This document shows, one piece after another, positions 1,840 through 62,019 of a stretch of 64,000 nt of DNA. Under the pieces are notes generated by a model. It was not told the DNA's origin, made no database searches, and saw only the letters and a list, made by a program, of their open reading frames with translations. Source of the stretch: Leucoraja ocellata (lineage: Eukaryota); NCBI GenBank assembly GCA_036785375.1, contig JAWMAR010000058.1, positions 6,820,001 to 6,884,000 of the forward strand, read 5' to 3'. Every line of letters begins with the position of its first letter. The first letter of the stretch is position 1. Made by a program: the position numbers and the translations under genes.

Positions 1840-1935
1840 AAAATTGCAGATGCTGGAAATATTCAACAGGTCAGGCAGCATCTGTGGAAAGAGAAACAGA
1901 GGTAATGTTTCAGATTGAAGGAGTTTGCTAGATCT
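1840..1935 (-). mobile_element. Old Penelope-derived 3' terminal fragment
   Basis: GCAGATGCTGGAAAT...GGTCAGGCAGCATCTGTGGA matches the other PLE terminal repeats in the window. Confidence 0.65.
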
Positions 1936-4453: not shown

Positions 4454-4906
4454 AAGACTCAATGACGCAGCTCGCAACAATCTTCTCATCAGCAGCTAGG
4501 AATGAACATACTTGCTGGTCTTGCCAGTCAGGCCCACAGACTAGGGATTAATTATTTCTTGAAGCGAGTATGCCTTTCGTTGAACAATTTTGGGAAAAAG
4601 TTTGTTCAACTGACTTTTATCCAAACTTGGCCAGCTGGTTCTCTCTAAGAGTGACCATAGATAAATGACAGGTAGACAAAAAGCTGGAGGAACTCAGCAG
4701 GTGAGGCAGCCTCTATGGAGAGAAGGAGCAGGCGACGTTTTGGGTCGAGACCCTTCTTGAGACTGATGTTGCGGGGTGGGGGGGGGGGGGGGCCGGGAAA
4801 AAAAAAGGAAGAGGCGGAGACAGTAGGCTTGTGGGAGAGCTGGGAAGGGGGAGGGGGAAGGAGCGAGAAAGCAAGGACTATCTGAAATTGGGGAAGTCAA
4901 TGTTCA

Positions 4907-5106
4907 AGAAGGAACTACAGATGCTGGAAAATCGAAGGTACACAAAAATGCTGGAGAAACTCAGCGGGTGCAGCAGTATCTATGGAGTGAAGGAAATAGG
5001 TAACGTTTCGGGCCAAAACCCTTCTTCAGTCTGAAACGTTACCTATTTCCTTCGCTCCATAGATGCTGCTGCACCCGCTGAGTTTCTCCAGCATTTTTGT
5101 GTACCT
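4907..5106. mobile_element. Palindromic PLE-derived short insertion with 10-bp TSD
   Basis: TCAATGTTCA at 4897-4906 and 5107-5116; near-perfect ~75-bp inverted arms (GAAGGTACACAAAAATGCTGG... / ...CCAGCATTTTTGTGTACCTTC). Confidence 0.9.
5002..5029 (-). ncRNA. Minimal type I hammerhead ribozyme motif (PLE-associated)
   Basis: Minus strand reads CTGAAGA-A-GGGTTTTGGCCC-GAAAC-GTT; core nucleotides intact. Confidence 0.65.
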
Positions 5107-5144
5107 TCAATGTTCATACCGCTGGGGTTTCGCTTGGGTAGTAA

Positions 5145-6720: not shown

Positions 6721-6837
6721 TCAATGCAAGAGTTTAGAGAAGGATCCCGACCCCTGAAGGATCCCTGAAGACGGGGCCTGACCTGTGATGTCACCTATCC
6801 CTTTTTCCCTATAGATGCTGACTAACCTGCTGTGCTA

Positions 6838-7163
6838 AGGGCCTGTCCCACTGTACGAGGTAATTCAAGGGTTTTCCCCTGATTCGAACTTGGAGAATGT
6901 CCGTAGCGGGTCCGTAGGAGTTCGTGGATGTCTCGTAGCAGTTTGTACGAGTAATGGTAAGTACTCGGGAAATCCGGTAAACTCGTGACGTTTTTTCAAC
7001 ACTGTGAAAATTGTCCACGAGTAAAAAAATATTCGTAACTTTAAAAATTGTTACTTTTTACTCGTAAAAGCCGCTACGAGGCATCCACGGACAATCTCCA
7101 ATTTCGAATCAGGGGAAAACTCGGGAGAACTCTTGAATTACCTTGCACAGTGGGACAGGCCCT
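6838..7163. mobile_element. PIF/Harbinger-like MITE inserted in a PLE-derived repeat
   Basis: TIR AGGGCCTGTCCCACTGTACGAGGTAATTCAAG ... CTTGAATTACCTTGCACAGTGGGACAGGCCCT; flanks CTA/TTA; host repeat resumes as TTACTCAAGCACTTTGTGTC. Confidence 0.85.
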
Positions 7164-7699
7164 TTACTCAAGCACTTTGTGTCTATCTTCAGTGCAAGAG
7201 TAGTTAGGGTAATGGAAGTAAGGCAGATGGATGTGGTGAGGTTATCTAGCTGATTGGGGGAACAGGCGAGAGGTATTCGATGGTTTACCTTTGTTCCAGT
7301 AGAATTAACTGCAATGTGCATGAGAATAAAGGGTGTGCATATCGATGAGCTGCTCGTCAGTTTGCCTTCCCCTGACTGATTGCACATCCATTCACCATAT
7401 AATCTCAGTTAAACGGGGCACAGACATACAACCATCACAGCAACAGCTGCACTCTCAATCCAGCAAACACCCCCAACCCCCCCCCCCCAAACCACACCCC
7501 CAACCCCCCCCCCCCCCCCCCCCCCCCGCCCCCCACCTCCATGACCGATGAAATAAGAAGATTTAGAAGTACCAGGGGATGGAGGAGTCGGTGAACCACA
7601 ATAATCATCTTTAAAAGGGAAACAGTAAGAGAGTTTGCAATTGGCACCTTTCCCAGCCTCAGGAAATCCCAAAGTACCTTGCTCACTAATCTGTTGTGG

Positions 7700-13219: not shown

Positions 13220-13460
13220 GGACATACAAGATACTGCAGATGTTGGAATCTGGAGCAAATACAAACTGCTGGAGAAACACGGCAGAGCTGGCCGCATCTG
13301 TGGAGACAGAGGGATGGCCAATATTCCAGGCTGAGACCCTGCATCATGATCTGATGCACATTCCTGATGCAGGGTCTTAACCTGCGATGTCAGCCGTCCC
13401 CCTGCCTTCACAGATGCTGCCTGACCCGCTGGATTCCTCTCGCAGTTTGTTTTTTTATGC
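13220..13460. mobile_element. Older palindromic PLE-derived element
   Basis: Diverged inverted arms (GCATCTGTGGAG..AGACCCTGCATCA / TGATGCAGGGTCT..CACAGATGCTGC). Confidence 0.75.
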
Positions 13461-25620: not shown

Positions 25621-27189
25621 GCCTTAATACTTCTTCCACCCCATAAATGACCCGGGTTCTAACTCCCGATATGATCCTTCCGGGACAGCCACTGAACCAG
25701 CATCACAACACTGGTATAGGCCAAGGATTGAGAGCTCATTCTCTGTCCATCAATTTTCCACACTGGGACATTTCTGGGTGGCTTGGAGCCTCTTACACCT
25801 GCCCAGACTGAAGGTGTTGGCCTTTGTCCCTTTCTCTCATGAGTGATGGGCAGCCGTCTAGTAACTGCCTCCTTAAATCTTCACACATCTCTCTCTTCTT
25901 GTGTAGTTGCTGTTCAAACCCTAACATCTAGTCAGAGGTCTTGCCGTAAAATTCTGTTTACTCATTGCTGTTGTGAAGAACATTGGAAATGTCAACGTTC
26001 TGCAACTATGTGTTACTGTGGCAGTAGTCTGGATCCCTGCTTCACTCCTGGGTAAGTTATGGTGTAGCTCCAGGGAAGTACCCAGGCCAACTCTACCCTG
26101 GGGGCAATTTGCATTTGGACTTCAAGCAATGGGCAGGAGGAAGGGATAGGTGGAAAATTGGAAGGGCCAACAGGACAGGCAGGCAGAGTGTGGGTAAAAG
26201 CTGAATCCTTGCTTCCATATATAGAAGGCGGAGTGGAAGTCCCGAAGCTACAAACGCAGAGGCTCCACTAAGCTTTTATCTCTCAGGCAGCCTCCCCCTA
26301 TAGCAAAAAAATCTCCACCTCTGGGCACTGCTGGGAGTAAAACCACAGCTGTTTTATTAAAGCCTTTTGCCATATTCTTTGAATATTTATGTTCATTAAT
26401 GTGGCAAAAAAAATGTGAGTAAAGTGAGTATTTGAGACATATCCAGTCAGGTAACGCAGACCAGGTTTCCTGGCGAGGATTGGCGTGTGGGTGGAGGATG
26501 CGTGGCTGGTAGGGGGGGTACAACCTTAAGGATGCCCCCACCCAGAATTGGCAGCCTTATTCTTACCCCAGAGTTGTTCTTCTTTTCAGTATCCCAGAGG
26601 TCCGACCCACAGGGACACTCCTAAAACAAAAAGAGCTATTTCCCAAGGGACCAAGAGTCACACACACCACCTTGTATGTGATTTGAAAGACTCAGTGTGG
26701 GACACAATCAGCTCTGACTCTACCCCCACTACTCACACTCATTGGGTGACAGATTGTGCTTTAATGAGTAATGGCAACCACCAGTTGGGAGCGATGAAAG
26801 AATACAGGTTTTCGCCAGTTATCCTGATTGATTCATTGGGAGGATTCTCAGCAATTATTTTTTTTCACAAACCAGTCATTTCCTTTAGTCATTGCCATTT
26901 CCCAATCTCCCGTCACCACTGACCCAGCTGCACCGTATGTCAGTGTGCGAATGCCTCTGTTATTTGTGGCTTCCACCAATTCCTTGGGTGCAAAGTGAGG
27001 CCAGTGTAAGAAGGCGGAGGGTAGATTTACGTTAAGTTCCACCAGGCTGCGCTGGGTCTTTTCCCAGGAAAGGGGGAGCCTCGCGGACGTGTTGCTAGTG
27101 GGGTGCAGGGGTTGACTCTCTGTCTTCATGTAACCACTTGTGGGGATAGATATCTCATGGGAGGTGGGTAGCATTCAGACAAATGGATA

Positions 27190-27540
27190 CAAGGAATTGT
27201 AGATGCTAGTTTACAAAAATAGACACAAAGCGCTGGAGTAATACAACGGGTCAGGCAGCATCTCTGGAGAATGTGGATAGGTATATTTTCGGGTCGGGAC
27301 CCTTCCTCAGACAGATTATGGTGGGCGGAGGAGAAAGCTGGAAGAGAGGACGGGCACGGCAACGCCTGGCGATGGATAGGCAGATAAAGGTGAGGGAGGG
27401 TTTAATTGGCAGATGGTTGGACAAAGGCCAAGATGAAAAGGCAAAAGATGAGAAAGGTAGAAATGGCTGTGAGTCTGGGTGGGGCACAGGGAACGGGGGT
27501 TGTATGTAGGTAGTTACCTAAAATTGGAGAATTCAATGTG
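27190..27540 (-). mobile_element. Penelope-like 3' fragment (ORF end, UTR, degenerate hammerhead)
   Basis: Minus strand ends ..IEFSNFR*; CTGAGGAAGGGTCCCGACCCGAAAA motif; conserved terminal tail. Confidence 0.8.
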
Positions 27541-27845
27541 AGGGGATATGGGGCTGAGGGTGAGGAGGTGTGCGGCTGGGAGTGTGACGGAATATGGAGC
27601 TGTGAGTGTGGGTGGATGTGGAGGCAGAGTGTGGGTGGATGTGGGGGCAGAGTGTGGGTGGTTGTGATATTGGGAGTGAGAGTGGATGTGGGATTGGGAG
27701 TGTGGGTGGATGTGGGGGCAGAGTGTGGGTGGATGTGAGGTTGTGAGATTATGGTATGTGAGGCCTTGAGAGTGAGGGATGTCGGGCTGGAGGTATGAGG
27801 AGATGTGGTGTTGAGGTGGAGTGGTCGTGGGAGGGGTGTGCTGGT
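27540..27845. repeat. GT-rich tandem-like repeat (GAGTGTGGGTGGATGTGGGGGCA)
   Basis: Several ~23-bp copies visible. Confidence 0.8.
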
Positions 27846-28729
27846 TGGAATGGCAGCCAGTTCATTGGGGGTCAGCGATGGAGCTCATCATGCCTTCATG
27901 TCAGGCTGGTTTGCTCCCGCTGTTGGTTCCCTGACTTCCCCTGACTCACGAGCTTCCCCGAGTGTCTCCCCTGCCTCCCCTCATGCCCCCATGCACACTC
28001 ACTAACCAGTGGATGCCAGCGAGTCCCTGCAGTCTTTCCCACAGGTTAGTCCTGCCTCATCTGCAGTTTCTTACTCACACAGTGTCCCATGGTGACACCA
28101 TCCCATTGCGCACTGGTTTATTGTACTTTGACAAAACCTCTGTGCCGTCCTGGGACATTTTTGCTTCAACAAAAGCAAGATATAAATGGAATGAAAATCA
28201 CAAAGATTGCCGAGCCTGGAAATCTGAAATAACAACAGAAGATGCTAGAAATACCCAGCAGGTCAAGCAATGTGGGATGCCGTCTGACATGCTGAGTCTT
28301 TCCAGCATTTTCTCCTTTCATTTTCTTACAAATTGAAGTAGTGTTGGCATTGCTGGTCATGGTGGAAACTAATATAGAATGAATCAAGCAAACAGGAAGC
28401 TTGTTTTTAAGGCTTGGGATCTTTAAAAGGATTGATAGCCACCAGTGCAAGTTTTGTTAAAATCAAATACTTGTTATTTCTGAGCCACAGACACAAAATC
28501 CAATCCAAATGCTACAAAAGCAGAACTCTCCAAAATTAACTCTTTTGCTTGGAAATTAATTCCCGGTCAATAGCAGTAGCACAATCCCGACATCTGGATT
28601 TCACTTTCTTTAGCTTCCAATTTTGGAGTCAGAATAATATACAGCCGTTACATTGAGCTCTGATAACCGGGGATATATTTCTAAGCAAGGAAGACTACAA
28701 TGTCTGTGGCAAGGCTGTAATGACATAAA

Positions 28730-28890
28730 TAATTGAAAATACTGGAAGCACTTAGCAGGTCAGACAAAGAGAAACAAAGTTAATATTTCAAGAGCATGCT
28801 CCTTTATCTCCCTCCACAGATGCTGCCTGACCTGCTGTGTGTTTCCAGCACTTCCTATTATTATTTCGGAGTTCCAGTATCTGCAGTTTT
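28730..28890. mobile_element. Old inverted-arm PLE-derived element (similar one at ~28205-28325)
   Basis: CTGGAAGCACTTAGCAGGTCAG / CTGACCTGCTGTGTGTTTCCAG arms. Confidence 0.7.
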
Positions 28891-31472: not shown

Positions 31473-32597
31473 TATGTAACATATCCCCTTTAAGATCCAA
31501 AAACCCAACAAAAAAAATGGTTCAAGCAATCTAACAATGAAATTAATAATGGTATTACATTGAAGGAGAAGGCTTATAACATTGTCAAAACGTGTAGTAA
31601 GGCTGAGGGTTGGAAAGATTTCAGAATTCAGCAAAAGGAGGGACAGGTCAATGATTATAAAAGGGAATGTATTGAAATTTAGGAAGCAAGAGTGACAAAA
31701 CAAACAAAAAATTTGAATGTAGGTCCCTCATAGACTGAGGCTGAGAAATGATAATGGGGGGAAAAAGGAAATCACATCAATTTTAGAGAAGTATTTTATG
31801 CCTTCCAGGGAAGAAGACATAAAATATATTGCAGAAATATGTGAGAGTACTATGTCTAGAGAGAACGGGTTGCGGTAATAAATTAGCATTAGTGGGAAAA
31901 AAAGGCTGTGGAAAATTAATGGGGCTGAAAGTCAATAAATCCACGGGACCTGATGACCTGCACACCAGCTTTTAGACGGAGTTGAATATGGAAATAGATG
32001 ATGCACCAGTGGTCCATAGTTCCTGCAATGATTCCCACATAATACAGTTACCAAACATAATCTTTCTTTTTAAGAAAGTAGATCGAAAGAAAACATGGAA
32101 CCACAAACCAGTTATGCTGACGTCAAGAGCAGGGAAAAAGCTAGAATCTAATATTAGGGAAGAGACAACAGGGGACTTGGAAAATAATATTAGGCTTGAG
32201 CAGTCGTGAACGAGAAATTGCGTTTGGCAAATCTATTGGAGCTTTCTGAGTAGCAGGACAGCTAAGGGGGAACTGGTTTCAGAAAGCCTTTGGATAAAGT
32301 GCTAAAGGGGTTGATTAACGGACACAAAACAGAGGGCAAGACCAAATTATTAGGTTTGGAAGGTGTACTGGTGTGGGATGAGGGTGTCAGTGCTCAGGGA
32401 TGAGTGGTGGGGGTTCATAATCTATATTTGTGATTTGAATGAAAGGCCCAAGTATAATATATTCAAGACTGACTGATGATACAGAGTTGAGCAGCAGTGT
32501 AGACTGTCACAAGGTTGCCGAATGGTTTCAAGGGGATATTCACAGGCTGCATGAATTAGTGAAGGCAGATGTAATGTCGACCTTTATTGGAAGAGAA

Positions 32598-33042
32598 AAC
32601 TCAAAGCTCAACAGGTCAGACAACAACTCTGGAGGGCATGGATGGGTGACATTTCAGGTCAGGACCCTTCTTCAGACTAATTGTAGTAGGGAGAAGAAGT
32701 GAGGGCTGGACAAAGCCAGGCAGGTGATAGGTAGATACAGGTGAGGTGGGATTTTGTTGGCAGACGGGTGGACAAAGGCCAGAGATGATAATAAGACAAA
32801 AGGCTGTACGATAAGGAGAAGAGTGAAATGGGAACCCAGAGGAAGGGATATAGGTGGAAGGGGATGGGGTTGGCCGAAAGAGGGGCGGGATGGTGGGAGA
32901 AATGGGCGCACATATGGATGGGGGACAGGGAAGTGAGGGGGGGTAAACAGAGTTGCTATCCTGACCCGGCTGAGCTACACTGTTTTGTGTGTGTTTTTTA
33001 TTTTGTAAAACCAGCATCTGCAGTTTTTTTGTGTCTAAATTC
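32598..33042. mobile_element. PLE-derived insertion with inverted ends and 13-bp TSD, inside CR1
   Basis: TATTGGAAGAGAA at 32585-32597 and 33043-33055; minus-strand CTGAAGAAGGGTCCTGACCTGAAATGTC at ~32648-32675; opposite-orientation tail at ~32960-33036. Confidence 0.85.
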
Positions 33043-34729
33043 TATTGGAAGAGAATTCAAGTATGAGTAAAGATGTCTCGCTGCAATTACATCAGCTCCT
33101 GATGAGGCCGCACCTGGAATATTGTGTCTTGTTCCCCCACCAATGAAGAGATTAAATGGATTGTGTGTCTGTTTGGAAGAATAAGGTGTGATCTTATTAA
33201 AATATGCAAAATTCTTACAGGTCTTGGTAGGATAGATACAAGGATCTAATTTAATCTGGCTGCAATCTCTGGGACTCGGGGACAGAATATCAGAATAAGG
33301 AGTTGGTCATCCAGGACTGAGGTGAGAGGAAATATCTCCATCCAGAGAGTTCTGACATTTTCAACACTATTCAAGTAAGCTACAGAAACAGTCAGTGACT
33401 ATATTCAGAACAGCCTTTTGGATAGGAAGGAAATCAAGGGATATGGGATTGATGCAAGAAAATAGCTTTGAGGTATAAAATCAACCATGATATTGAATTA
33501 TGGAGCTGATATGGACTTAATGGTTTAATCCAGCTACTTTTCCTTATGTTTTATGTCTGATAAACGGGGACAGTGAATACTATTTTCTGACTTCAAGGCA
33601 CTATTATTGGTGAATATTACTTCAAATGTGCTCATTGTCAATGCTGAAGGATGGAGAAGCATTTTGTGACATGACCTTCGGTAGGACATTTTTTTAAAAA
33701 CAAAGTCAATTTAAAACATTTAGGATGATGTGAGGATGGCAGGTATTTCTTGTCATGATCAATAGACATGTCAATGCTGCTGCTGGAAAGTACTCTGCTT
33801 GACAAAAAGAAAAAAATATCATTCTTGCATCACAAAGATCGTTAAATCATTCCTGAGTGGGTTGACTATTGGGAGGGCAAAGGGCAAAGGGCACGGTAAG
33901 AATGAATGTGACCCAGTGAATGTCCAGAAATTCACCAATGCTCAGGAATAACTTGACTATCATGGCCTTGCATGAAAGCAGCTGATTAGTTGTGTTCTGC
34001 CCAGAGCTGTTCCAGGGGTCAAACCTCTTGAATACTTAGTTTAATGGCTTCCCCATCCCCCACCTTCACTCCCTCCACCCTAACGTTTAGAATCATCATT
34101 GTCAGACCCTCCATCGCTTTTTCTGTTCCCCTCACTCCCTCAAAATGTTTATTTGAACCGACTACTTTGATCAAGCTTCAAGATGAATTAAAATCAAAGG
34201 GGGCCACAGTGTCTCCTCTACATGTGCGAGACTACGCATAGACTAGGTGACCATCATGCCCAACAGTTGCCCTCGGTCTGCCATGACACACTGAAGCTGC
34301 TCATTGTTACCCATTTTAATTCTCCTTCCGATTCCCAAACTGACCTTTCTCTCTTTGGCCTGCTCCACTGCTAGTGCAAGGCCACACACAATCTGCAGGA
34401 ACAACACCTCGTATTCCGCTTGGGTAGCATACACCCCAATGACATGAGCATTTAATGTTACAATTTCAGATAATGGCCCCTCCTTATCTACCCAGCCCCA
34501 CCCACCTCTTGCCCAACTTCCATTCAATTACACCTGCCCCCCCCCCCCACCCAACCACCCAATTCCTTTCCCATCCTCCATCTACTCATCTTCCACTCCT
34601 CCTTACTCTAGTTCCCATATTTTCCTGTTCCAACTTCCCCCACCATAGTTCCTTTAGACCCACTATCACTCCCTCTAGTCCCCCACCTTTCCTATCAGAT
34701 TCCACCACCTGCACCCTTTTATCTTCTCC

Positions 34730-35218
34730 ACTGCAAGAAATTACAGAGATGTAGCCCAGCCATCATAGAGACCAGACTTCCCACCATTAACTCCATCTAC
34801 ACTTCCTTAGAAAAAGCAGCCAACATAATCAAAGACTTGTCCCACACTGGTCATTCCTTCTTCTCTCTGCTCCTGTCATGCAGAAGGTACAGAAGCTTGA
34901 AAGCGTACACCTCCAGATTCTGGAACTGCTTCTGCTCCTCCGTAATCAAGCTTCTGAACAGTCCTTCCATAAGCGAGGGTACTGTCTGATTCACCTCGAC
35001 CCCATTGGAGACATTAGACTTCATCTATGGAACTGATGCACTACAATGCTGAGAACTATATTCTGCACTGTGTCTTCTTCCTTTGCTCTACCTATGTACT
35101 TGAGTTTGACTTAATCGCATTCATCTATGATATGCATAAGTGATCTGTTTGGACAAGCATGCAAAACAAAGCTTTTCACTGTACCTCAGTACACGTGACA
35201 ACAATAATAAACCTAATC
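34730..35218 (+). mobile_element. Rex1/Babar 3' fragment
   Basis: KKLQR..AQ..LPTINSIY..KAANIIKD.SH.GHSFFSLL..RRYRSL; 3' end CTTTTCACTGTACCTCAGTACACGTGACAACAATAATAAA. Confidence 0.8.
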
Positions 35219-35327
35219 CTCCAGCCTTGGTTACTCTCCACCCATCTGGCCAATCTTCCCACACTTGCCATTAATGATCCACCCCTTCCCTCACCTCTCC
35301 CAGCTACCTCTACTCTACCCCATTAGT

Positions 35328-35355
35328 CTGAAGAACGGTCCTGATCTGAAACGTC
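35328..35355 (+). ncRNA. Minimal hammerhead ribozyme motif
   Basis: CTGAAGA-ACGGTCCTGATCT-GAAAC-GTC; core intact, stem II partly decayed. Confidence 0.55.
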
Positions 35356-36574
35356 ATCTGTCCATTTCCCATCACAGATGCTGCCCGACCCACGAAGATC
35401 CTGCAGCAGTTTGTTTTTGTCTCTAGAATCAAAGAGGAGTTGATAATGGCCATATGTGAGCAATAAGTTGCAGGTGCCGGCAGAATAAGAAGAGTGAGAG
35501 AAAGGATTGCTCGCTGAGACCCAATTGGTTGAATTACCTCTTCCTGTGTCAGATAACATTTGTAAGACAATTGGCCATTTTATTTAGAAAACAAAGCTTT
35601 TGCTGTTGGCTGTTTAAATGGACAATGAAATGAGGGCTGGCAGACAAATGTGGCTGCCTAACTGATGTCAATCACCCTCTCACATACCAACAGCAGAACT
35701 TGTATTTCATACTTTTCATACTTGAAGATCATAGGTACATTGCAGGAACATTGTTGGGAAACGTTTGATGGGCAGCCACCTAGAAAGGATGAGGACATGT
35801 CACTAATGGCTTGCTGGAGGAGAGAGATTTTGTGAAGGGTCTTAAAGAAAGAGAAAATGTCGAGAGGTGGGGGAGGGGGGATTTCACGGCCAGAGGTGTG
35901 GAGGTATTGCTGGGCAGCTGCTTGTAATGGTACGAAGGCCATGAGATCACACGAGAAGTTTCGACTCTGGAGCATAGAGATCCAGCAAAATTATAGGATG
36001 ATACAGATAAACAGGAGCTCAGACTTGGGGAGATTTAAACGCAAGAATGAAACATAGAAACTAGGTGCAGGAGGAGGCCATTCGGCCCTTCGAGCCAGCA
36101 CCGCTGCTCCCATTTGTCTTCTTCAAAATTTCAAAACTGCACATAAGGCAGGAAGTCCAATGGTTGGTTTATAACTCTGAAGGCATACATTCCAATATAT
36201 TGTTATTGAAATAGAAGAATAACTGTATAAGGCTCAACATTGATTTTTTTGGTTGTGGGATTGAAACTGATTGGATTCTGGGAAAAGGAGCACTCTGTAG
36301 CGTTTAGTTGCCTGCAGAGTGCCTGTGATATCAACCTCAGCTGGCTGTTTGGTACGCACACATCAAATAGAAATGCTTCCTGTCGCTGGCCAAGATCTCC
36401 TGCAGTAAGCCAATTAAAAAGAAGGAAATCATCTCTCGGCACCCACTGCAAGCCCTCCACTCAGACGTGAAAAATAACATTTTATCTGAAAACAATTAAA
36501 AAGAAACCCTGTGTAGGTTGCAGCTCGGATTAGTCAGCGAGATCAACAGGGGGTGGAAGCTTGAAATCGAGTGT

Positions 36575-36588
36575 GTTGCCATGGCAAC
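36575..36588. promoter_or_regulatory. Perfect palindromic RFX X-box
   Basis: GTTGCCATGGCAAC in non-repetitive sequence. Confidence 0.55.
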
Positions 36589-37174
36589 CTAGCATTGGAT
36601 CGAAGGTAAAGCAGGAAAGTAAGTGGCAGGCCCACATGTTCCCATCCCGAGGTTCCCAACCCTCCAGCATCTCAGGAGTGGAGGAGTTGTTTCAGCACCC
36701 TGGCACTAGCAGGGAGAAAGAGGTGCCGTGTGAGTTTCTTGCTACCAACTGAGGTACAACTGGTGACCAGGTAAATAGAATCAGTATAGATGGGGACTTA
36801 ATGGTCAGCATGGACATTATGGACAAGAGGGCTATTTGACTCCATAACACACTTAATGCTAGCGACCGAGCCCACATTCCTCCAAACTAACTCGCTGCCA
36901 ACATGTGAAGCTTGAGGTTGAGTGAAAGTGGGTTGATGTTGGATGGAGCTCTGCACAGCAATCACAGAGTAACAAACCCAGAAATGCGTCTGTGCAACAC
37001 CTGAAATCAGGGTTATGTGTAGATGACAACTGTGTCAATACAGCCTTGAGCAGGTTGCCTACATTGGAAAGGTTAGGTCCCAATTTGTTTGCTCCTGCTG
37101 CGTGGTTTTCACCTACCCTTGCACAGAACGGGGGACTAGAGTATCCTGGGTTATGGAAGAAAAGGTGACCCTGA

Positions 37175-37385
37175 AAATAGACACAAAAAGCTGGAATAAC
37201 TCAGCAAGTCAGACAGCATCTATGGAGAAAAAGAATAGGTGACATTTTGGGTTGAGAAGAAGGGTCTTGACCAAAAAATTCACCTATTCCTTTTCTTTAG
37301 AGATGCTGTCTGACTAGTTGAGTTACTCCAGCTTTTTGTGTCTATCTTTGGTTTAAACCAGCTTCTGCAGTTCCTTCCTACACAA
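37175..37385. mobile_element. Palindromic PLE-derived element
   Basis: Arms ATAGACACAAAAAGCTGGAATAACTCAGC... / ...GTTGAGTTACTCCAGCTTTTTGTGTCTAT, plus full tail CTGCAGTTCCTTCCTACACA. Confidence 0.85.
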
Positions 37386-38439: not shown

Positions 38440-39240
38440 TGCTCATGATCTTATATAGTTCCATCAGCCTACTTCGTTTGCTCCAAGGAATAAAGTCCTA
38501 GCTTGTTCAACCTCTCTACAGCTCAGGCCCTTGAGTCCTGGCAACATTCCCGTAAATTGTCTCTGCACTCTTTCCAACTTAACAACATCCTTCCGATAGC
38601 AGAGTTACCAAAACTGAACATAATACTCCAAATACAACCTTATATTTGCCATACCAACATCTTATACAACAATAACATAACATCCCAACTCATATACTCA
38701 TACCCTGACTGATGGAGATCAATGTATCAAAAGCCTTTTTGACCACGTACATTTGACGCCACCTTCAGGGAACTATGTACCTGCATTCCTAGATCCCTCT
38801 TGCTCTATAACACACCCCAGTGCCCTGCCCATTACTGTGAAGGTACTACCCTGATTTGACCTCCAAAAGTGCCACACTTCACACATATCTTCATTCCTCA
38901 GCCCACTTGCCCAGCTGATCAAGATTCTGCTGTAATTTTTTATAACCATCTTCGCTATCTACGATACCACCCACGTTAATGTCATCTGAAAACGTACTAA
39001 TCGTGCTTTGTATATGCTCATCGAAATTGTTGATATAAACTACACACATCAATGGGCCCGGCACCTATCCCTGAGGCACACCACCAGCCACAGGCCTCCA
39101 GTCTGAAAAATAACCTTCCACTATTACCTTCTGCTTGCTTCCAGCAAGCCAATTCTCTATCCAGTTGGCTCGCTCTCCCTGGATCCCTTTTGATCTAATC
39201 TTCCAGAGCAGCCTGGTCCATATAGACAAATGTCTATGGC
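38440..39240 (-). mobile_element. CR1 RT/3' fragment
   Basis: ATGTCATCTGAAAAC is the reverse of the F.DD motif; typical CR1 ORF2 minus-strand text. Confidence 0.8.
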
Positions 39241-40189
39241 TTTGCCCTCTTCAACATTTTTGGTTCGGAGGGCAACACTCAGCTCCCTACTCCCTGATAT
39301 ATTTCAGCATGTCATTGAACCACTGAAGTCCATTCCCCAAATTATTTTTCAAGAGAAGGGTTAAACGACAACTTCCATTCTGACATTCCTGCTGATGTCG
39401 GATCCCAGATTTAAATCACCCTGATTTATAACTATTGAGTCTGAATACGGTATATATAATTTATAGAGACACAAGAGCTTTCTGCTGCCGAAATCTGAAG
39501 CAACAAAACAATCTGCTAGAGGAACTCAATGGGTCAAGTAGCATCTGTGGAGGGAAATGGACAGTCGACATTGTAATTGATAATCAGGTCTTCACTATTT
39601 CTCTGTACGCAGAATAGCGATTAGTGTTGTGACCTTAACCCTTGCTTTCCCCTTCAGATAGCTTATAGTGAATAGCTTTTGTGAAGGATGAAGTTTGTGG
39701 AGCTGTTGCCATGGTAAATATTTGACATTTATTCATAAAACTTGAGTGGGTTGATAATTTGTGTGCAATTGTCTGGAGTTATTTTTCTGAGTTTTGTTTT
39801 GAATGCTATAACACAGATGTGGTTTGTTTTAATTGCAAGATGCAGATGGAATCCGGAGCTAGTGAGTGTGGGACATAATCAGCGCAAAGAATGGGGGGAA
39901 GATCAGTCAGTCAGGCAACACAAATCTTGAGCTGTCAATCCTCGTGCAAGCTGTGGAGGCCGACATCACCAGAGGGCTTCAGGGCGAGAGCAAGAGATGA
40001 AGTGTTGAATAGTGATCTCAGCATAAAGCAAGTAGAGGGAGGGTCTGAGATTGTGTCTTCGAGTTGTACAGCAGAGAAAAGCACCTCATATTTTACTTGG
40101 GCAGTTTACAACCCAATAGAATAAATATTGATTGCTCTAACTTCAAGTAACCCTTGCATTACCTCTCTCTCCATCCCTCTCTCCCCTGC

Positions 40190-40553
40190 CCTGCGGCCCG
40201 ACTCTGGAGCTTCGGAGGCTCCAGTCACAGGTCCGGTGGACGGTGACATCGGGAGCTCGCGAGTCCCTGGTGGGAGACCCATAACGGCAACTTCTCCCGC
40301 CCGATGGGGGGTTGAAGGCGACCCGGACTTGCTAGCGCCCGCCGGGGGCTTTGACATCGGGAGAGGAATGGAGAGCAGGGGAGAGACAAGACTTTGCCTT
40401 CCATCACAGTGAGGAGGAGATTCACTGTGATGGATGTTTGTGTAAATTGTGTTGGTGTGTATCTTGGGTCTTTTCTTGTTGTATGACTGCAGAAACCACA
40501 TTTCGTTTGAACTTCATTTGAGGTCCAAATGACAATAAATGGAATAGTATTGT
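40190..40553 (+). mobile_element. GC/CpG-rich non-autonomous retroelement with Rex/Babar-like 3' end
   Basis: CpG-rich body; 13-bp hairpin at 40400-40434; ends ATTTCGTTTG..AAATGACAATAAA plus a short tail; interrupts the PLE UTR. Confidence 0.6.
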
Positions 40554-40755
40554 ACTAGTTTCACTGTCGCCCTGCTGACTTTCACTGTTTGTATCCACTC
40601 GTTATCACCTTCTCCACAGCCAACAATGGACCATTGTGGGCTCCACCTTTCCTTGATTATCATTACTGGCTTTGATTTGTACTTTTGCATACCTTTCATT
40701 CATTTTTTCCTTGTACCTTTTTATTATACCGTTTCCCGTTCCCCTGTATCTCAGT

Positions 40756-40783
40756 CTGAAGAAGGATCTCGACCCGAAACGTC
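40756..40783 (+). ncRNA. Minimal hammerhead ribozyme motif (best-preserved plus-strand copy)
   Basis: CTGAAGA-A-GGATCTCGACCC-GAAAC-GTC-ACC: CUGANGA, stem II, GAAA, palindromic ACGU stem III, GUC cleavage triplet. Confidence 0.7.
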
Positions 40784-41329
40784 ACCAATTCCTTTTCTCC
40801 AGAGGTGCTGCCTGACTCGCTGAGTTACTCCAGTTACTGTGTTTATCTTCAGAGAAACAGGCCCTTTGGCTCATAATGTTCATGCTGACATGTTTGCTGA
40901 TCCACACTAATCATATTTGCCTGTATTAGGAATGTGGGAAAGGAAACCTGGAATTTATAACCATCAGAAGTGTCAACCCATTCCAGAAAATAGATCTAAA
41001 AGGTGAAATTTAATGTATTTCACTCCTCACTTTCGGCCGAGCCCTGACTGACAACTTATTAAATTGCCATCGTCTTCAAGACACAATTTCATCTTGTTCC
41101 AAAAGAAGTGATCTTATCGAGTGCCTGATTGTTTCAGCACAGCCTGTCAGTTGTTGACTACAAACGTGAGCACAGCAAGGGGACTCGGTGAACCAGTCTA
41201 GCCAAGCAAACCAAATAAATAGTGAGGACGTATTTGTTGTTGCACCCCACAGTGAAACACTGTGTGAGGCTCCTCAGCCTGTTCCTCCTTGCCTTATCCT
41301 AACTTAAACCCAGGCAAGAACTTGCATGA

Positions 41330-41490
41330 TATAGCACCTTCCAAAGGCTAGAAACAAATTATGCACAGCAAGCTCGCAAAGCAGGGAAGGAAAATGACCG
41401 GATAATCTCCTTTTGGGTATTGTTTGAGGAATGAATAAAGATAACACTCCCCTCCAACTGGTTCTCAAAACAGTTGTCACACGGCCTTCT
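41330..41490 (-). mobile_element. DeuSINE Deu domain
   Basis: AATTATGCACAGCAAGCTCGCAAA..AATGACCGGATAATCT..TTTGAGGAATGAATA is the reverse Deu domain. Confidence 0.65.
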
Positions 41491-41632
41491 CTGTCCATGT
41501 TGCTGGATCGCTGAGTTTTACCTCTCCATCACTTTCTCAAGGAAAGGAGTAGAAATAAAATACTGTCTTTTAAAGTAGGCCATTCGGCCTTTCAAACCAG
41601 GTCTGATCTCTGACAAGGTCATGGCTGATCTT

Positions 41633-41732
41633 GTGTAGGAAGGAACTGCAGATACTGGATTAAATCATCACCCATTTCTTCACTCCAGAGATGCTGCCTG
41701 TCCCGCTGAGTTACTCCAGCATTTTGTGTCTA
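41633..41732. mobile_element. 100-bp inverted PLE-tail insertion with 14-bp TSD
   Basis: TCATGGCTGATCTT at 41619-41632 and 41733-41746. Confidence 0.9.
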
Positions 41733-41944
41733 TCATGGCTGATCTTCCTCCTCAAGAACCATTTTCCTGCTTGATCCCCAAATCCTTTGATTCCTTTAAT
41801 ATCCAGAAATAATGATGTTAGTTTGGGACACAATCAATAACTGAGGCTCCACATCCCCCTTCCAAAGATGACTATCCTTGTGTGAAAAAATGTCTCCTCA
41901 TTTCATCCTTTTACAAGCTAAACCGTGATCCTTGTTCTGGACTT

Positions 41945-42179
41945 GGTTTAGTTAGTTTATTGCCACGTGTCACAGTGAAAAGCTTATTATCACAGAGAAA
42001 ATCTTTTGTTGTGTGTGTGCTAACCAGTCAGCGGAAAGAGAATACATGATTACAATCGAGCCATTTACAATGCAAAGATACATGATAAGGGAATAACGTT
42101 TAGCGATAAGTTAAAGCCAGTAAAGTCTGATCAAAGATAGTCCGAGGGTCATCAGGATAGTAGTAGTTCAGGACTGCTC
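41945..42179 (-). mobile_element. Rex1/Babar 3' UTR fragment
   Basis: Reverse complement of ~22420-22650; TCTGGACTT at 41936-41944 and 42180-42188 (probable TSD). Confidence 0.85.
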
Positions 42180-42464
42180 TCTGGACTTCCCAACAACTAC
42201 ATTGAATGCATTTAATTGAGATAACTTCCCATTCTTCTGTGGAGAATAAAGTCCATGACAACTCAATCTCTCCTCAGATGACAGATCATCCAGCCCTGGA
42301 ACTATTCTAGCTCATCTTTGATACACTCCCTCTAACAGGTATAGCATTTTCGGGTAAGAAGATAAAATACACAATATCCCTGATACAGTCTGGTCAAGAC
42401 CCTGTATCGTTGAGGTAGGAATCCTGTACTCATACCCTCTTGCAATAAAGACTATTATATTGTT

Positions 42465-43028
42465 GCCGCTCGCCTTTTAACCGGAACTCGAAAGAGGGAG
42501 CACATTACCCCAATTTTGGCCTCCCTTCACTGGCTTCCAGTGCACTTTCGAGTTCATTTTAAAATTCTTTTATTTGTTTTTAAATCTTTGAATGGCCTCG
42601 CCCCGCCTTACCTCTCTGAGCTGCTCCACCTATATGCTCCTACCCGGTGCCTCAGGTCAGCGGATCAGCTGCTTCTTGAGGTACCAAGGTCTAAGCGGAA
42701 GCTCAGAGGGGATAGAGCCTTTTCTGTTGCTGCACCGGCACTTTGGAACACCTTGCCGCTGCAGATCAGACAGGCCCCTTCACTGTCCATCTTTAAATCC
42801 TCCCTAAAAACGCATTTTTATTCAATGGCTTTCGACACTGGCTGAGACTTTGTTCCTGTTTTAGTGCTTTTAATGTCTTTTAATTTTTTACTGTTTTTAT
42901 AGTCCTGTCGTTTTAATGGTTTTAGTTTTGTGATAACTTTTTTGTTGATTTCCACTGTACAGCACTTTGTGGTAACTGATGTTGCCTAAAAGTGCTTTAT
43001 AAATAAAGTTATCATTATTATTATTATT
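42465..43028 (+). mobile_element. L2-clade LINE 3' end, well preserved
   Basis: Open frame AARLLTGTRKREHITPILASLHWLPVHFRVHFKILL..LAPPYLSELL..LRS..GDRAFSVAAPALWNTLP..FKSSLKTHFY; CAGCACTTT..AAAGTGCT stem-loop; (ATT)n tail. Confidence 0.92.
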
Positions 43029-44868
43029 GTTTATATTCCCAACTTTCTACTGCTCTGAATATCTGAGAATTTAAAGAAAAAGGGTTTTGGCTCTTTTATC
43101 TTCCAGAACTGACATCATTTACTTAGAATAGTTATGTGGCTGGGGCAACTTATCAGATCTGTGGGATTGTTTCACAGCAGGAGTTAATACATTTAACATA
43201 TTGAAGAAGAAACAATATATTCAGGGTATTGGGCAGTGGATATTTCCAGCTGGACACTGCAAGTGAAGTTACCTATTTCAGGTTGTATTGCTTTACAAGC
43301 TTACACGAGTCTATGCCACTGTTCAAATGTAGGTTGTGGATGTTGTCTTAACACAGTCTAAGGGGGAAACAAGCTCCTTCATTTATCCTTCATTGGCCTT
43401 TGAGCTTCTCCTGGTATTTCACTTCCCTGCCCGGAGCCTCCCACTCACCCTCTCTGAGTTGTTCAGCTTTTGTCACTCGCTGTTATGTGTCTCTCTGATC
43501 CACCACGCCTTTCTTCCTCTTTAATGACTCTTTATTGCTTTTGATTACTGCTCTTCCTCTCCACCCTGCAGCTCCATCCATCCTTTTGGGATCTGGCTAT
43601 GGGCTGGGGTACCACTAGGCAATCATTAACCAGGCTTTTAATGCTCCTTGTGCATTCAGCTGTAGCAACAAAAGACATGTTGTATGTCAATGCTTTTCAG
43701 AAGTGTTCTAGTGTGCTGGCTGGGCAGGACACAATGACAGAAGGGGATGAATCTATGTCTGTGGTAAAGGCTAATGGACCACAGACTGGGAAGTGTCAGG
43801 TTATCAACTTGTGGGTGAGAAGGATGTTGGACTGACTGGAAGATACGGCAGAGGGCTGAGTTAGATTAATCTCCTTTACTTGAATACTTCCCTGCCACTG
43901 GCACCCCTGGTTCCCATCTTGCTATGGATCATTGAAGGCTCTGTTCAAACTAACCATCACTGGCAAGGTATTGGAATGATATTGGTGTCGGTATGTGTTT
44001 AATATACAAGGAGGCATGAATGGAGATCAGAGGATGGGAATTTTCTTTTACAAAAAAGCTGTTGTTGGGAATGAGAGAGCAGCTGGGCCCCACTGCGATC
44101 TGACAAAGAGTTGTACATGGTTCAAAGTGCTTGTACATTATTAACCACTTCAGCGAGGTCTTAATGCCTGCTTCAACATACCATGGATATCGAGAGGGGT
44201 TTTGGATGCAGGATGTGGTGAATCTATCTCATTCAGAAGGTGGTAAGTAAAGAACTGATCAGCTTTCTGTTGGTGAATCCAATGTCCAGGTCCATTACTG
44301 AGCTGCACATATCAGGCAGATCCCCTACCTGAATTAGTTCCGGTAATTAATAGAGGAGGAGGTTCATGTAATGGTGGGGTGGCTGTAACAGTTATGGAGA
44401 GCAACAGATATCCTTTACATGTGGCAAGTCAAAAGTCGAAGACCATTAATATAAATTAGCTTCTAAATCCAGGACCAAGGTGAGGATCAGTGTCTTTACA
44501 CAGAGAGTGGCTTTAATGGTATGGATGAGCAACAGATAAATACATTATGAAGAAAATAAAAAGGACAATATGCTGAGCTGTACAGGAGTGTGAGGAAGCT
44601 TGTGAGAAATGCAATACTGCAGTTGACTAGCTGGGTCAAACAGCCCGTGACCACACCAGGTTCTGGATGATTCTGTGCTGTGGTTCCTGGTCCAGGGGGC
44701 CCTGTACCTGACCCCCAGTTGATAAAGATGAGTTTGCAGATGTTGGCCAAAGACAAGGGGAGATGTTGGAATATGCTGGTGACTTCAGCATCCAAGTAGG
44801 AAGAAATTCCATGAGAAGAGGGAGAAGTGTACAAATACTCAAATCCTGACAACATCAGCATTTTTTAG

Positions 44869-45110
44869 CGGGGGGGGGGGTGGGGGGGTGGGGGGGGGGG
44901 GGGTGAAAAGATAGAGAGAAAGTGAGAAAGGAGGGAGGAAGTAATAGAGGGAAGGGGAGAAAAGGGAGAGAGAGGAGGGACATAGAGGGGAAAAGAGAGG
45001 GAAAGGCAGAAAGGGGGAGGTGGTACAGATCGAGGGAGCGGGAGTAGGGAAAGGAGAAGGAGAGAACAAAAGAGTAGAAGATGGAGACGGGGAGAGAGCG
45101 GGAGAACGAA
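44869..45110. repeat. Poly-G plus GA-rich tract
   Basis: G runs at 44870-44903 followed by a nearly pure purine tract. Confidence 0.85.
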
Positions 45111-45499: not shown

Positions 45500-45515
45500 A
45501 ACAATGCGCATTGTC
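45500..45515. promoter_or_regulatory. Inverted SOX dimer-type site
   Basis: AACAATGCGCATTGTC, containing the perfect palindrome ACAATGCGCATTGT. Confidence 0.4.
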
Positions 45516-47370: not shown

Positions 47371-47531
47371 CAATCCTGAGGGCAGATACAATCCTATGAC
47401 TCATAATTGATCAGCCACAATGTTGCTGAATGGCAGAGCACAGTGGATGAGTAAAATGGCCTACTCCATATACAGGTGTAGCACGGCCAGTTGTAGCTAC
47501 AAAGGGCATTTACAAGACCATTCCCTGAACC

Positions 47532-47699
47532 CATGTGTAGGAAAGAACTGTAGAAACTGGTTTACATCGAAGATAGACTATAGAAATGCTGGAGTAACTC
47601 AGGCAGCGTCTCTGGAGAAAAGGAATCGGTGATGTTTTGGTCGTACTTCGGTCTGAAGAAGGGTCTTGACCTGAAATGCCACCCATTTCCTTCCTTCAA
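47532..47699. mobile_element. Inverted PLE-derived insertion with 13-bp TSD
   Basis: CATTCCCTGAACC at 47519-47531 and 47700-47712; GGT-CTGAAGAAGGGTCTTGACCTGAAATGCC-ACC at ~47650-47683. Confidence 0.9.
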
Positions 47700-48959
47700 C
47701 ATTCCCTGAACCTAGGTCTCCCAACCAAACGTGTCTCGGAGCAGTTACATCGACCTTTTGGGAAGGTTACCATGAATCTTTGAGGGGAGGAATGAATGAA
47801 ATAGGCGCGTATTCTCCAGTGTTTTGAAGAACGGGAATTGAATCCTATAAAAATCTGAAGAGAAAATAGAGGAAGTGCTCAGAGCGTTGGGAACCAGGTT
47901 CATAATGTTATGATAATGGGTTGGCCAATTCGAGCTGTAATAAAAACACATCTCCATGTAGCATGCTGTGGATATGTGGAATCTGCTGCCCAGAGTGTTG
48001 AGGTTAAGTCATTGGGTCTCTTCATGGATGTTGGATGATTGTTTGGGTCAATAAGGGAACCGACCAAAGGATTGAAGAAGAGGCTGGAGATAGAAATTCA
48101 GCCATGAAACTATTCAACGCAGCACGTTCTCGATGGGCCCATCTGGCTAATTCCAAATCCCTGTTCTTAAGATGTTATTAATGATGAGAACAGGCTCAAG
48201 GCCCCGAATGGCCTTCGGTTAGTTTTACTCTAAAACATCCCAAAATATATTCATAACGCGTTCTGCATTTGCTCTTCTGGATGTAAGATGGCTATTTCAT
48301 TTGTTTACATAATATCATGAGATGCACTTTAAAATAATTAATTCTATATGAGGTGAACTCAAGTGCATATGAATATTTTTAATTACATGCGTCATATCTG
48401 CAAAACGTATCAACATTTCATTTTAGAGTTGCTTTCAACCACCAGCCAAATGCATTATATAGAATCAGGGGATGGGAATTACACTAGTGGCTCTGCACCC
48501 GCTGTCGTGCAGCAGAAATGCATTGTGTGCATGCTGTTGTGCATAGTGCATGTGCAGCGATAGAGCTTTAGAAATTAGAGCCAACAGCCCTCACTCTCTC
48601 TCTGTTTCCATTGCCGCTGGTACGATGTGACAAGTGATGTGTGACTATTCCTGCAGGTTGCTGCTGACTGCAGCCTATTTACACTCAAGCTGAATTCACA
48701 CTTGAACGACATTCAGATTTTATACTGAGGCTGAGCCAAAGCTGCTTCATAATTACGGGCCGCATCAGATAGCGGGCCTGCTGCAGACATACATCATGGG
48801 CGCTGCCCTGCCATGGTGGTCGCAAACCACTTGGAGAGGAGAGGAGGGCATGTTAGCATCAATTAGCTGCTCACATGTCAGATATGTATGGTGAGCTTTG
48901 GACTCCCTACTGTTCACGTTGGCAGAGAAACAACTTCCCTCCAGGGATGAATAAAATTT

Positions 48960-50480: not shown

Positions 50481-51509
50481 AATTCTCTTATTGCAGCAAA
50501 ATGTCCTCCCCTATCCAGTAGCTAATTCTGGATTCCATGTTATCTAACTTACCAAACAAGCCTACCATTTTCTTTTCAGTTATTTATTAACTAACATTAC
50601 TTATGAATCTGCTTTTGCTGCCCTTTCTGAGAATTTAGATTAGAGCAACCTCCTGTGTGAAAACAGAGACCAGGGAGAATGCGGACTCTAAAACCGGTAG
50701 CTACATAGCGGAGAGCAACAAAACAGGCAGCACTTCTGCAGGGAAATGGATAGTTAGCATTTCAGGTCGGGGCTCTGTATCAAGTTCTAGATGAAGGGCC
50801 TCAATGTGATTGTCCATTTCCCTCCACAGATGTTACCTGAATTTCTGGCTGTCTCTAGGTCCTCGTATATTTTTGCACCTATGTAACAAATAGTTTCCTC
50901 AATAACCTTGTAACTCTCTTAACTATCGTAGAGTAAGTTAACCTCCCAAACTCCCAGTCTTTCCACAGGAATGGAGCAGGCATTACTATTCAGTGCACCA
51001 TCTCCAAGGTCTTAACTTGCTCCCAAATGTGTGCAAAAGTAGACTCGCCGCAAGGTCTCACTCGTGATCTATAGCTTTACTTTCTCTTTACCAGCTTAGT
51101 GCAGGAGGGGCGATGGAGATGTGAGGGGAACTTTGCTTTGGGTAAAAACATTATGTTTTATGGTTGTCAGGCTGCTCACCCCCCCCCCCCCCCCCCCCCC
51201 CCCCCGGAGCCTGACAGCACAGGACACTATCACTGGGAAACAGTGCTGCAGTCCTGGCGCTTGCTGGATCCCTCCCTCCCCTATGCATTCTGTATCTTAT
51301 ATGTGGCTTTCAAATCATGGCTTGCAGCTAAACTTCGGATTCAAAGTATTGATATCTGTACCAGCTGCACCTCATTAAATTGGAAAGCTTCCCTTCAAGG
51401 CTTTTAAACTATATCCTGAGCGACATGGTTTTTCCAGCTAATTGACTGAATTGTAAAGCTTCTCTGCAGAAATGACAGGCATTTAGATCAGTATCGCTTC
51501 ATAATGGTG

Positions 51510-60660: not shown

Positions 60661-60840
60661 TGTGTAGGAAGGAACTGCAGGTGCTGGATTAAACGGAAGA
60701 TTTTATCACAAAAAGCTGGAGTAACTCAGCGGGACAGGCAGCATCTCTGGAGAAGGGTCTCGACACAAAACGTCACCCATTCCTTCTCTCCAGAGATGCT
60801 GCCTATCCCGCTGAGTTACACTAGCTTTTTGTGTCTATCC
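60661..60840. mobile_element. Palindromic PLE-derived element
   Basis: Inverted arms around AAGGGTCTCGACACAAAACGTC; imperfect flanking duplication TCATTATTTAATTG / TCATGTTTAAATTG. Confidence 0.85.
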
Positions 60841-61111
60841 TCATGTTTAAATTGCCTGGTTCTAACTTAAACTATATTCTCTTTCATCCAGATCCCCCAT
60901 CAGAACTAAAGTTCTCTTTCTAGGGTCAAGCAGAAACAGGCCCTTCAGCCCACCACGTTGATGCTAACCACTGAGCCATGAGCCATTTACCAACACTTCT
61001 TTCTCACCTATTGAATCCCTTTAGCATTTTATTTTACCATGCGATTCTGATACGCCAACTGGGCAATAAAATAAAGGCAGGTAGCTTGAATTAGAAAGAT
61101 GATCAGACCTA

Positions 61112-61211
61112 GACACAAAATACTGGAGTAACTAAGCGGGTGAGGCAGCATCTATGGAGAGAAGGAATGGGCGACGTTTTGGGTCGAGACCCTTCTTCGG
61201 ACATGATAATC
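61112..61211 (-). mobile_element. PLE-derived terminal insertion with ~15-bp TSD
   Basis: AGATGATCAGAYCTA at 61097-61111 and 61212-61226; mutated hammerhead core. Confidence 0.85.
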
Positions 61212-62019
61212 AGATGATCAGATCTATTTGGTTAATGCACCATACCACCACGCTCCAACTTACACTCTTTAAGTCATGGTATCTTTGTGGAAATTACCAG
61301 TCTCTATGGATCTTTATTGCTCAAAATGTCACACACTTCACTTCCCTTTAACTGTGGAACATGAATCAATATTTTGCTTCCAATGTCACACAGTCCATTT
61401 ACTGAGCACACGAGTTTCTGTTTAAGAAGGAACTAAATGTTAAAGTGTACTGTTCAATCTATCAGAATTAGCAATGAAAGGCTTGGCATACCACAGCATT
61501 ACACCTAGTGAAAGATTTTAAACACATCAAAGACACGGAGAAACTTGAGAAGGAAGCACTTCAGACAAGGAATTTCGTTGCAATCCTTCAATGATCTGCA
61601 ACATTAGTTGTGCACAGAATGGAAGATTTGTTAAATTCCAGTCTTCCACCATGCGACTCTGATACGCCAACTGGGCAATAACATTGTAGTAATACTGGAA
61701 ATCGATCAGCAAGTCAAACACACTGATGTGCTAATGATTTAGTATTTTTAGTGAAATGGGGAGAAGGATAAATATTATGCAGGACAACAGAGAGATCTCA
61801 TCGGTTCTGCTTTCAGTTGTCTTTGTTGCCTCAATGAAAGGCTCACCACCTCTGGATTGGTTCTTGAACCCAGGACCGCTGAAGCAGGGCAGCACTGAAC
61901 TATTCTCACCCGACAGTTCCAATTGAAAAATAATTATTTTCTTCTGCTTCTTGCACAGGTATAAAAACATAAAGGTACATAAAACCTACCCAAGCTTTTC
62001 AATGGTTACCAGCTATGTT

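Follow-up and report, generated by a model that had tools for sequence, protein, structure and literature searches.

Short, densely inserted repeats with damaged minimal hammerhead motifs are very probably decayed 3' ends of Neptune-like Penelope-like elements

Minimal hammerhead ribozymes were described in 2014 in the ends of Penelope-like elements (PLEs), as truncated solo copies; a single fish or frog genome can hold solo motifs in the thousands. The minimal-hammerhead study of that year found no cleavage by monomers and weak cleavage by dimers, and 8/9 dimers of published minimal hammerheads failed to cleave when tested. It also reported a D. virilis intron that ends at helix I. An inverted pLTR, a 30-40-bp tail, target site duplications and junction palindromes have been published for PLEs (Craig 2021, PMC8557442; Arkhipova 2013, PMC3846280). 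A CX2-5CxxC linker between the reverse transcriptase (RT) and the endonuclease (EN) is a mark of Neptune and Nematis (Craig 2021), and rotifer pLTRs contain an Inr-like TCACT (Arkhipova 2013). In Poseidon_Ac (Frangieh 2024, PMC11167929) both target strands are nicked and extended, and RT has two internal start sites, which mark off the tail. The Poseidon_Ac ribozyme needs the assistance of the element's protein, and uncleaved RNA is the main substrate.

The 64-kb stretch of genomic DNA analysed here (the window) is animal-type DNA with 44% GC and a CpG observed/expected ratio of 0.30; repeats of this sort suggest a cartilaginous fish. The initial annotation had proposed a dispersed repeat of ~130 nt, and this repeat is real. 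Iterated nhmmer identified 30 module matches, a longer profile model identified 31 matches versus 0 in each of 10 shuffles, and a covariance model identified 32 at E<=0.1. The union of the profile searches generated 33 pieces, which form 32 arms since the piece at 7164-7196 is the detached end of the 6765 copy. These arms make up ~22 insertions, the majority consisting of the pLTR alone. Modules are ~100 or 136 nt long and are dispersed through the window. The 31 copies of the longer model cover 2,648 bases (4.1%); the plus and minus strands carry 16 and 15 of them, respectively. Four full-core copies per 64 kb would extrapolate to ~60 per Mb, for which a single window is too thin a basis. No head-to-tail array of whole modules was detected in the window by the profile searches. 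The viral contigs searched yielded no relative, and searching viral, metagenome and prokaryote collections by pattern gave 0 matches or three chance bacterial ones.

In module coordinates, TCAGT occupies columns 2-6, CTGAAGA columns 7-13, stem II columns 15-18 with 23-26, GAAAC columns 27-31 and GTC columns 32-34. The cut is predicted between columns 34 and 35. The coordinates of the features are collected in Table 1.

Table 1. PLE-derived features of the window, beginning with the parts of the copy that was flagged at the outset.
Feature	Position	Strand	Basis or remark
GIY-YIG C-terminal remnant with stop codon	40090..40150	+	homologue search
Unrelated GC- and CpG-rich repeat inside the PLE 3' UTR, just upstream of the flagged copy	40186..40550 (limits approximate)		no self-match in window
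Pyrimidine-rich PLE 3' UTR before the module	40551..40750	+	inferred from the analogous 4767 and 27316 copies
TCAG-T-CTGA palindrome and TCAGT, start site of short copies	40751..40759	+	columns 2-10
Minimal type I hammerhead, 12/12 core bases; stem II from 40764-67 and 40772-75 (A-C mismatch), ACGU at 40779-82, cleavage predicted after 40783	40756..40783	+	not the predicted fold
Linker, conserved 3' hairpin, short 3' end without tail	40784..40851	+	
Partial tandem with an inverted copy: modules at 5034-4906 (tailed) and 4767-4664, endonuclease end (~4905-4880) and UTR between them; inverted arm at 5031-5111 (+)	4664..5113	-	arms join via the palindrome
Solo module preceded by partial copies of the hammerhead 5' part	6735..7196	+	split by the element at 6837-7164; 9-12-bp flanking repeat, by eye
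Older-subfamily head-to-head pair	13224..13455		both arms start at the core
Endonuclease end, 200-nt UTR, tailed module	27187..27545	-	U16.1>A
Head-to-head pair without hammerhead	28206..28311		non-nested arms
Head-to-head pair lacking the core's 5' half	28730..28889		
Pair: minus arm with 267-nt UTR and 12 core bases, tailed plus arm	32583..33055		15-bp duplication; two G-U changes in the minus arm
Endonuclease remnant of 93 codons with two stops, the longest; UTR carrying a further insertion; module at 35323-35424	34192..35424	+	C-U in stem II
Head-to-head pair; plus arm long, minus arm short	37169..37381		
Pair, non-overlapping arms	41619..41746		perfect 14-bp duplication
Pair, palindrome junction	47519..47714		15-bp duplication
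Old head-to-head pair	50716..50874		both arms start near the core
Head-to-head pair, non-nested arms	60665..60842		6-nt junction overlap
Solo ~100-bp insertion, column 5 to short end	61097..61226	-	15-bp duplication
Old solo copy	1848..1916	-	endonuclease end 2616-2560 lies 640 nt upstream, same strand
Solo copy	12181-12277	-	
Solo copy	20793-20848	-	
Solo copy	21167-21240	+	
Solo copy	24200-24268	+	
Solo copy	39493-39572	-	

Several other elements were seen in the window. A ~330-bp MITE-like element with long terminal and internal inverted repeats (6837-7164) splits the 6765 copy. A Tc1/mariner transposase remnant lies at 30324-31037 (+), with flanks at ~29950-31450 (Pfam HTH_Tnp_Tc3_2, E 1e-19). 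Decayed LINE-type RT fragments are at 38981-39214 (-), 3754-4049 (-) and 42414-42845 (+), the last judged from its translation only. An assembly gap of 200 N at ~4250-4450 is just beyond the tandem at 4664-5113.

The repeats are very probably decayed, 5'-truncated 3' ends (pLTRs) of Neptune-like PLEs. Their hammerhead probably acts on the RNA of the element itself and is probably inactive in the copies seen here. GIY-YIG remnants lie upstream of modules on the same strand. A search with the endonuclease remnant at 34192-34473 found 89 homologues (best E 2e-16), several with GIY-YIG matches below the Pfam cut-off; one of them, P0070, contains RT plus GIY-YIG, both weak in Pfam. The remnant at 40090-40150 produced 36 homologue matches (best E 5e-7). 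Endonuclease ends of 8-9 residues at ~4905-4880 and ~27545-27515 are directly joined to modules, and a further short end lies at 2616-2560. A weak endonuclease match at 6381-6527 (E 0.005) was left out of the count. A homology search found no PLE RT-coding sequence in the 64-kb window, so the clade assignment rests on the homologues. The CX2-5CxxC linker, whose region lies outside the window, was found in 3/6 homologues inspected (P0004, P0012 and P0070); this would fit a Neptune-like element, and Nematis also has the linker. A word-based protein search found no longer relatives, and Pfam did not detect the decayed remnant. Four predicted proteins (P0002, P0004, P0013 and P0049) have the endonuclease end fused to unrelated host domains (GPCR, NYAP, DUF4518), and are probably mispredicted exons from such repeats.

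The initial annotation had called the repeat a PLE 3' module with a minimal hammerhead, which is supported by the endonuclease remnants, the homologues, the target duplications and the motif. It had also placed GIY-YIG C-termini upstream of the module at four places. All four are present, although in two cases 600 and 850 nt, including other insertions, separate them from the module. Absent from that first reading were the ten head-to-head pairs, the target duplications and the two fixed 3' ends.

The family majority is a minimal type I hammerhead with CUGAAGA, an extra A, a GGGU/ACCC stem II, GAAAC, ACGU, GUC/GUU and a 2-bp stem I, which bears out the elements as they were first described. 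The twelve core bases, in order and with one extra base after A9, are found in the majority and in 4/31 copies; the 5' half of the core is present in 16/31. All four full-core copies show damage in a helix, and none of the 31 copies in the window has both core and helices intact. Three of these copies had been put forward as the best cores. In the flagged copy at 40756 stem II reads GGAU/ACCC with an A-C mismatch, in the 35328 copy the conserved first pair of stem II is C-U, and the 5029 copy (5002-5029) has A-A in stem I and is part of an 83-bp hairpin with its inverted arm. The fourth, at 32675, has all core bases, two G-U changes and a lost palindrome. CpG decay of mutated cores, suggested earlier, was seen as G12>A in 7 copies and as ACGT>ATGT or ACAT.

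Stem II cells are paired in 85% of cases across 15 copies, and young copies have the ACGU palindrome. Non-CpG identity to the majority is 88% in the core versus 82% in the 3' hairpin (p=0.16) and 73% in the linker (p=0.002). The helix covariation score was 0.24, with 59/500 shuffles equally high, and has little power because the copies are decayed. No two-sided change in stem II was seen among the aligned copies. In three unpaired copies the hammerhead is not the predicted ground state, with a stem II probability <=0.01 from folding energies that leave tertiary contacts outside the model; the prediction pairs the core bases with the linker. A search with Rfam, which the initial annotation had recommended, generated 0 matches at the gathering threshold and no hammerhead family among 18 matches at E<=10 in the window. 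The miRNA-like Rfam matches are inverted pairs of the module. The bare pattern CTGANGA-N4,25-GAAA had 9 matches versus 5.7 expected, and 13/100 shuffles were as high, so that the pattern alone is not above chance.

The suggested large load of self-cleaving motifs therefore stands for remnants but not for working ribozymes, given 0/31 intact copies, a motif that is not the predicted ground state, and papers that report weak dimer cleavage or a need for protein. Judged by sequence, the hammerheads in these genomic copies are likely inactive. Because every examined motif is damaged, the repeats are likely harmless fossils, chiefly a record of how the element inserts.

Young copies with an intact motif exist elsewhere than in the window. 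In four RNA runs of organism D, which may be a different species (1-2% of its reads placed on the window are 99+% alike), each run has 3,322 to 6,413 reads that continue upstream of 41668. The majority of these reads have an intact core, stem II and palindrome start (agreement 0.64-0.70). Organism D reads also contain a ~66-nt head-to-tail subfamily unit, which restarts at hammerhead G12 after the 3' hairpin. Its joints are 40833-40776, 41727-40776, 27282-40833, 27282-41728, 41728-28812 and 41728-41683, with 158, 1,121, 2,178 and 1,036 joint reads in the four runs, summed over six rows. The unit adds a second GAAACGUC half to the module, and no such tandem occurs in the window. We rejected this half-duplication as a monomer-active hammerhead, since folding placed it a predicted 12.9 kcal/mol above the minimum and gave no support. 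In run X7 the module reads were in excess on the antisense strand; this was also set aside, as it is confounded by oligo-dT priming on the adjoining A-run and by library direction.

The insertions have a distinctive anatomy. Ten head-to-head pairs comprise 20/32 arms. There are two fixed 3' ends ~35 nt apart, a short one near column 99-104 and a long one near 134-136. Nine of the ten pairs have one long and one shorter arm, the remaining pair is ambiguous, and none has two long arms; the ~35-nt tail is on one arm only. Target duplications of 14-15 bp bound 4/19 units tested, with a chance of <=0.2% each. Three are 15 bp (32583-33055, 47519-47714 and 61097-61226) and that at 41619-41746 is a perfect 14 bp. 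The other 15/19 units had no clear target duplication. Two pairs are joined through the TCAG-T-CTGA palindrome, and a partial tandem plus inverted copy is found at 4664-5113. The old copies at 20793-20848 (-) and 21167-21240 (+) diverge 320 nt apart; they were counted as singles and may be an eleventh pair.

In 4/10 pairs the arms are non-nested, each holding sequence that the other lacks. The arms at 41619-41746 do not overlap: within the perfect duplication, one consists of columns 103-134, all of it tail, and the other spans columns 28-99. Fold-back of one cDNA is unable to give non-nested arms, which therefore favour priming from both target strands. The remaining 6/10 pairs are nested and fit fold-back and two-strand priming equally. 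L1 twin priming is the same kind of two-strand priming, and no paper that applies twin priming to PLEs was found in a literature search of limited scope. Non-nested pairs are a detail beyond the published PLE descriptions compared here.

Short copies begin at the hammerhead's first bases and not at the cut site. Counting each insertion once, 8/13 insertions reaching column 11 start in columns 2-11 (P ~3e-6, or 3e-5 after allowing ten windows), with start columns read by eye and the column window picked after seeing the data. The start hazard per base is 0.087 in columns 2-11, versus 0.009 in columns 12-62 and 0.006 around the cut site. Clustering holds when five old solo copies are assumed to run into the UTR, and is 7/8 among paired or duplication-bounded units alone; the 7164 piece enters no start count. 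The TCAG-T-CTGA palindrome and an Inr-like TCAGT are located at this edge (columns 2-10). Since copies run through the cut site and end at the hammerhead edge, their templates would mostly have been uncleaved RNA, in line with the in vitro results on Poseidon_Ac. The stop at the edge is likely the RNA's 5' end. Candidate causes are a transcription start at TCAGT (compare the rotifer TCACT, and an internal promoter), which we favour, a splice boundary or an enzyme block. Start clustering at the hammerhead edge is a detail beyond the published PLE descriptions compared.

The following insertion mechanism is proposed. The element's endonuclease would nick both target strands ~15 bp apart, and the RT would begin within the sense RNA, using one of two start sites for each strand. 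Both cDNAs would stop early and be joined at their 5'-truncated ends, producing a pair with a tail on one arm. Templates would mostly be uncleaved RNAs ending at the hammerhead's first bases. The ribozyme of an intact element may cleave only as a dimer via the ACGU palindrome, likely with the element's protein. The inserted copies would decay afterwards, largely at CpG. We infer the nicks, the internal RT starts and the cDNA joining, whereas the element's identity, the duplications, the 3' ends, the pairs and the damaged motifs come from the results above. Overlapping arms would need two RNAs or strand displacement. More speculatively, the pLTR could be a complete ~136-nt mobile cassette, in which RNA starts at the hammerhead edge, protein and two uncleaved RNAs prime both strands at two internal sites, the cDNAs are joined head to head, and the ribozyme is a dimer-sensing switch and not the maker of the template's end. 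We put this forward tentatively and with some doubt. With the density of the window, about a million such ends would be expected in the genome, which would suffice to decide between twin priming and fold-back and to locate the RNA start using genomic data only.

Other readings of the repeats were weighed. The module might be a self-propagating SINE-like unit: RNA transcribed from TCAGT would contain the ribozyme and both RT start sites within its first ~136 nt, and solo would beget solo. This differs from the proposed mechanism in the RNA source and is compatible with it. The pile of 5' ends at columns 2-11, the solo 100-bp insertion with its own duplication at 61097-61226, and partial copies of columns 7-26 before 6765 and inside the 13357 junction are consistent with such a unit. 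So are the Inr-like TCACT of rotifer pLTRs and the finding that pLTRs suffice for integration in trans (Arkhipova 2013, PMC3846280). However, the same ends could come from the 5' module of full-length transcripts, a splice boundary or an RT block, and no read-start pile was seen at TCAGT in the 6 of 8 rows listed, a weak test with fragmented libraries. We felt that a SINE-like unit was possible, though the chances are against it. Arkhipova 2013 argued for self-priming, in which pairs would arise by fold-back at the junction palindrome on an antisense template and not by two-strand priming. The palindrome joins in two pairs and the 6/10 nested pairs agree with this, but mutually exclusive arm sequence in 4/10 pairs and the non-overlapping arms within a perfect duplication at 41619-41746 make fold-back an unlikely source, and priming from both target strands is preferred.

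The motif could be hammerhead-like but no longer catalytic in this lineage, and retained as a promoter or protein-binding signal. A 2-bp stem I, a core predicted to pair with the linker and the lack of a covariation signal point that way, as do insertion without cleavage in Poseidon_Ac (Frangieh 2024, PMC11167929) and the Naiads, which thrive without hammerheads (Craig 2021, PMC8557442). Most organism D reads, however, keep the core, stem II and palindrome start intact, the core is better kept than the linker, and a 2-bp helix I is known in D. virilis; loss of catalysis throughout the lineage is thus improbable. The initial annotation had considered that intact copies might cut host pre-mRNA or release small RNAs. 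The repeats are dense (4.1% of the window) and module reads are abundant in organism D RNA. On the other side, none of the 31 copies is intact, paired copies are locked in long hairpins, and the strands are balanced. No host exon was found among the 261/335 stop-to-stop frames >=62 residues scanned with Pfam, where only the Tc1 transposase was significant. On 27000-46900, RNA depth was near zero (mean ~1 or less) in 9/30 bins in all four organism D runs, and high depth sat on repeats and came from other copies. In the 6 of 8 rows listed, read ends were piled neither at the cut site, where Anolis has none either, nor at columns 2-11, although fragmented libraries are a weak test. With no host exon among these frames, no sign of locus transcription in these runs and no read ends at the cut site in these rows, cutting of host RNA is unsupported in the window and very improbable. 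It is hard to credit that the repeats are non-LTR retrozymes, which are tandem hammerhead units giving circular RNAs. Retrozymes derive from PLE pLTRs and were found in the one chondrichthyan sampled, and the reads contain a 66-nt tandem junction, but the window has no whole-module head-to-tail array and the 66-nt unit lacks CUGAAGA and stem II. We retain the reading of decayed PLE 3' ends.

The motif as flagged is ordinary, being of a kind known since 2014, and two details of anatomy go beyond the papers compared. The 2014 minimal hammerheads share CUGANGA with one extra base, G10.1-C11.1, the absence of loop III and a palindromic 15.2-16.2. They are likewise mostly solo copies from truncated PLEs, with pairs on opposite strands. 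Stem II is 4 bp and stem I 2 bp here, versus 7-8 and 4-5 bp in Schistosoma. In the 2014 set only D. virilis has a 2-bp helix I, and it was missed by the descriptor used. The short stem may have hidden this family from descriptor searches, and published counts could be far too low for the lineage. If the window is typical, the density is far above the 4,000 and 9,000 motifs counted in coelacanth and Xenopus. The files searched gave no match for shark or skate, and no chondrichthyan description of the module was found in the literature searched, with Repbase, Dfam and subscription journals outside the search.

Canonical EN+ PLEs (Craig 2021, PMC8557442; Arkhipova 2013, PMC3846280) share the C-terminal GIY-YIG, the linker (in homologues), the partial tandem, an inverted truncated copy, a 30-40-bp tail at one end, junction palindromes and target duplications. 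The duplications are 14-15 bp here versus 8-10 bp in rotifer PLEs, most insertions here are pLTR-only, and the non-nested arms count against self-priming. The Anolis element Poseidon_Ac (Frangieh 2024, PMC11167929) shares two RT starts that bound the tail 3' of the hammerhead, an uncleaved RNA template and the absence of read ends at the cut site. It belongs to another clade, and its protein help and RT starts were measured, whereas ours are deduced. Retrozymes (Cervera 2020, PMC7229834; Li 2026, bioRxiv 2026.07.22.740005) share the type I hammerhead and kinship with PLE pLTRs, but form tandem arrays with complete hammerheads, while the modules here are dispersed, truncated and head-to-head. 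Scale and anatomy are the remaining interest, as dense short insertions with duplications test the formation of inverted ends and the role of the hammerhead directly.
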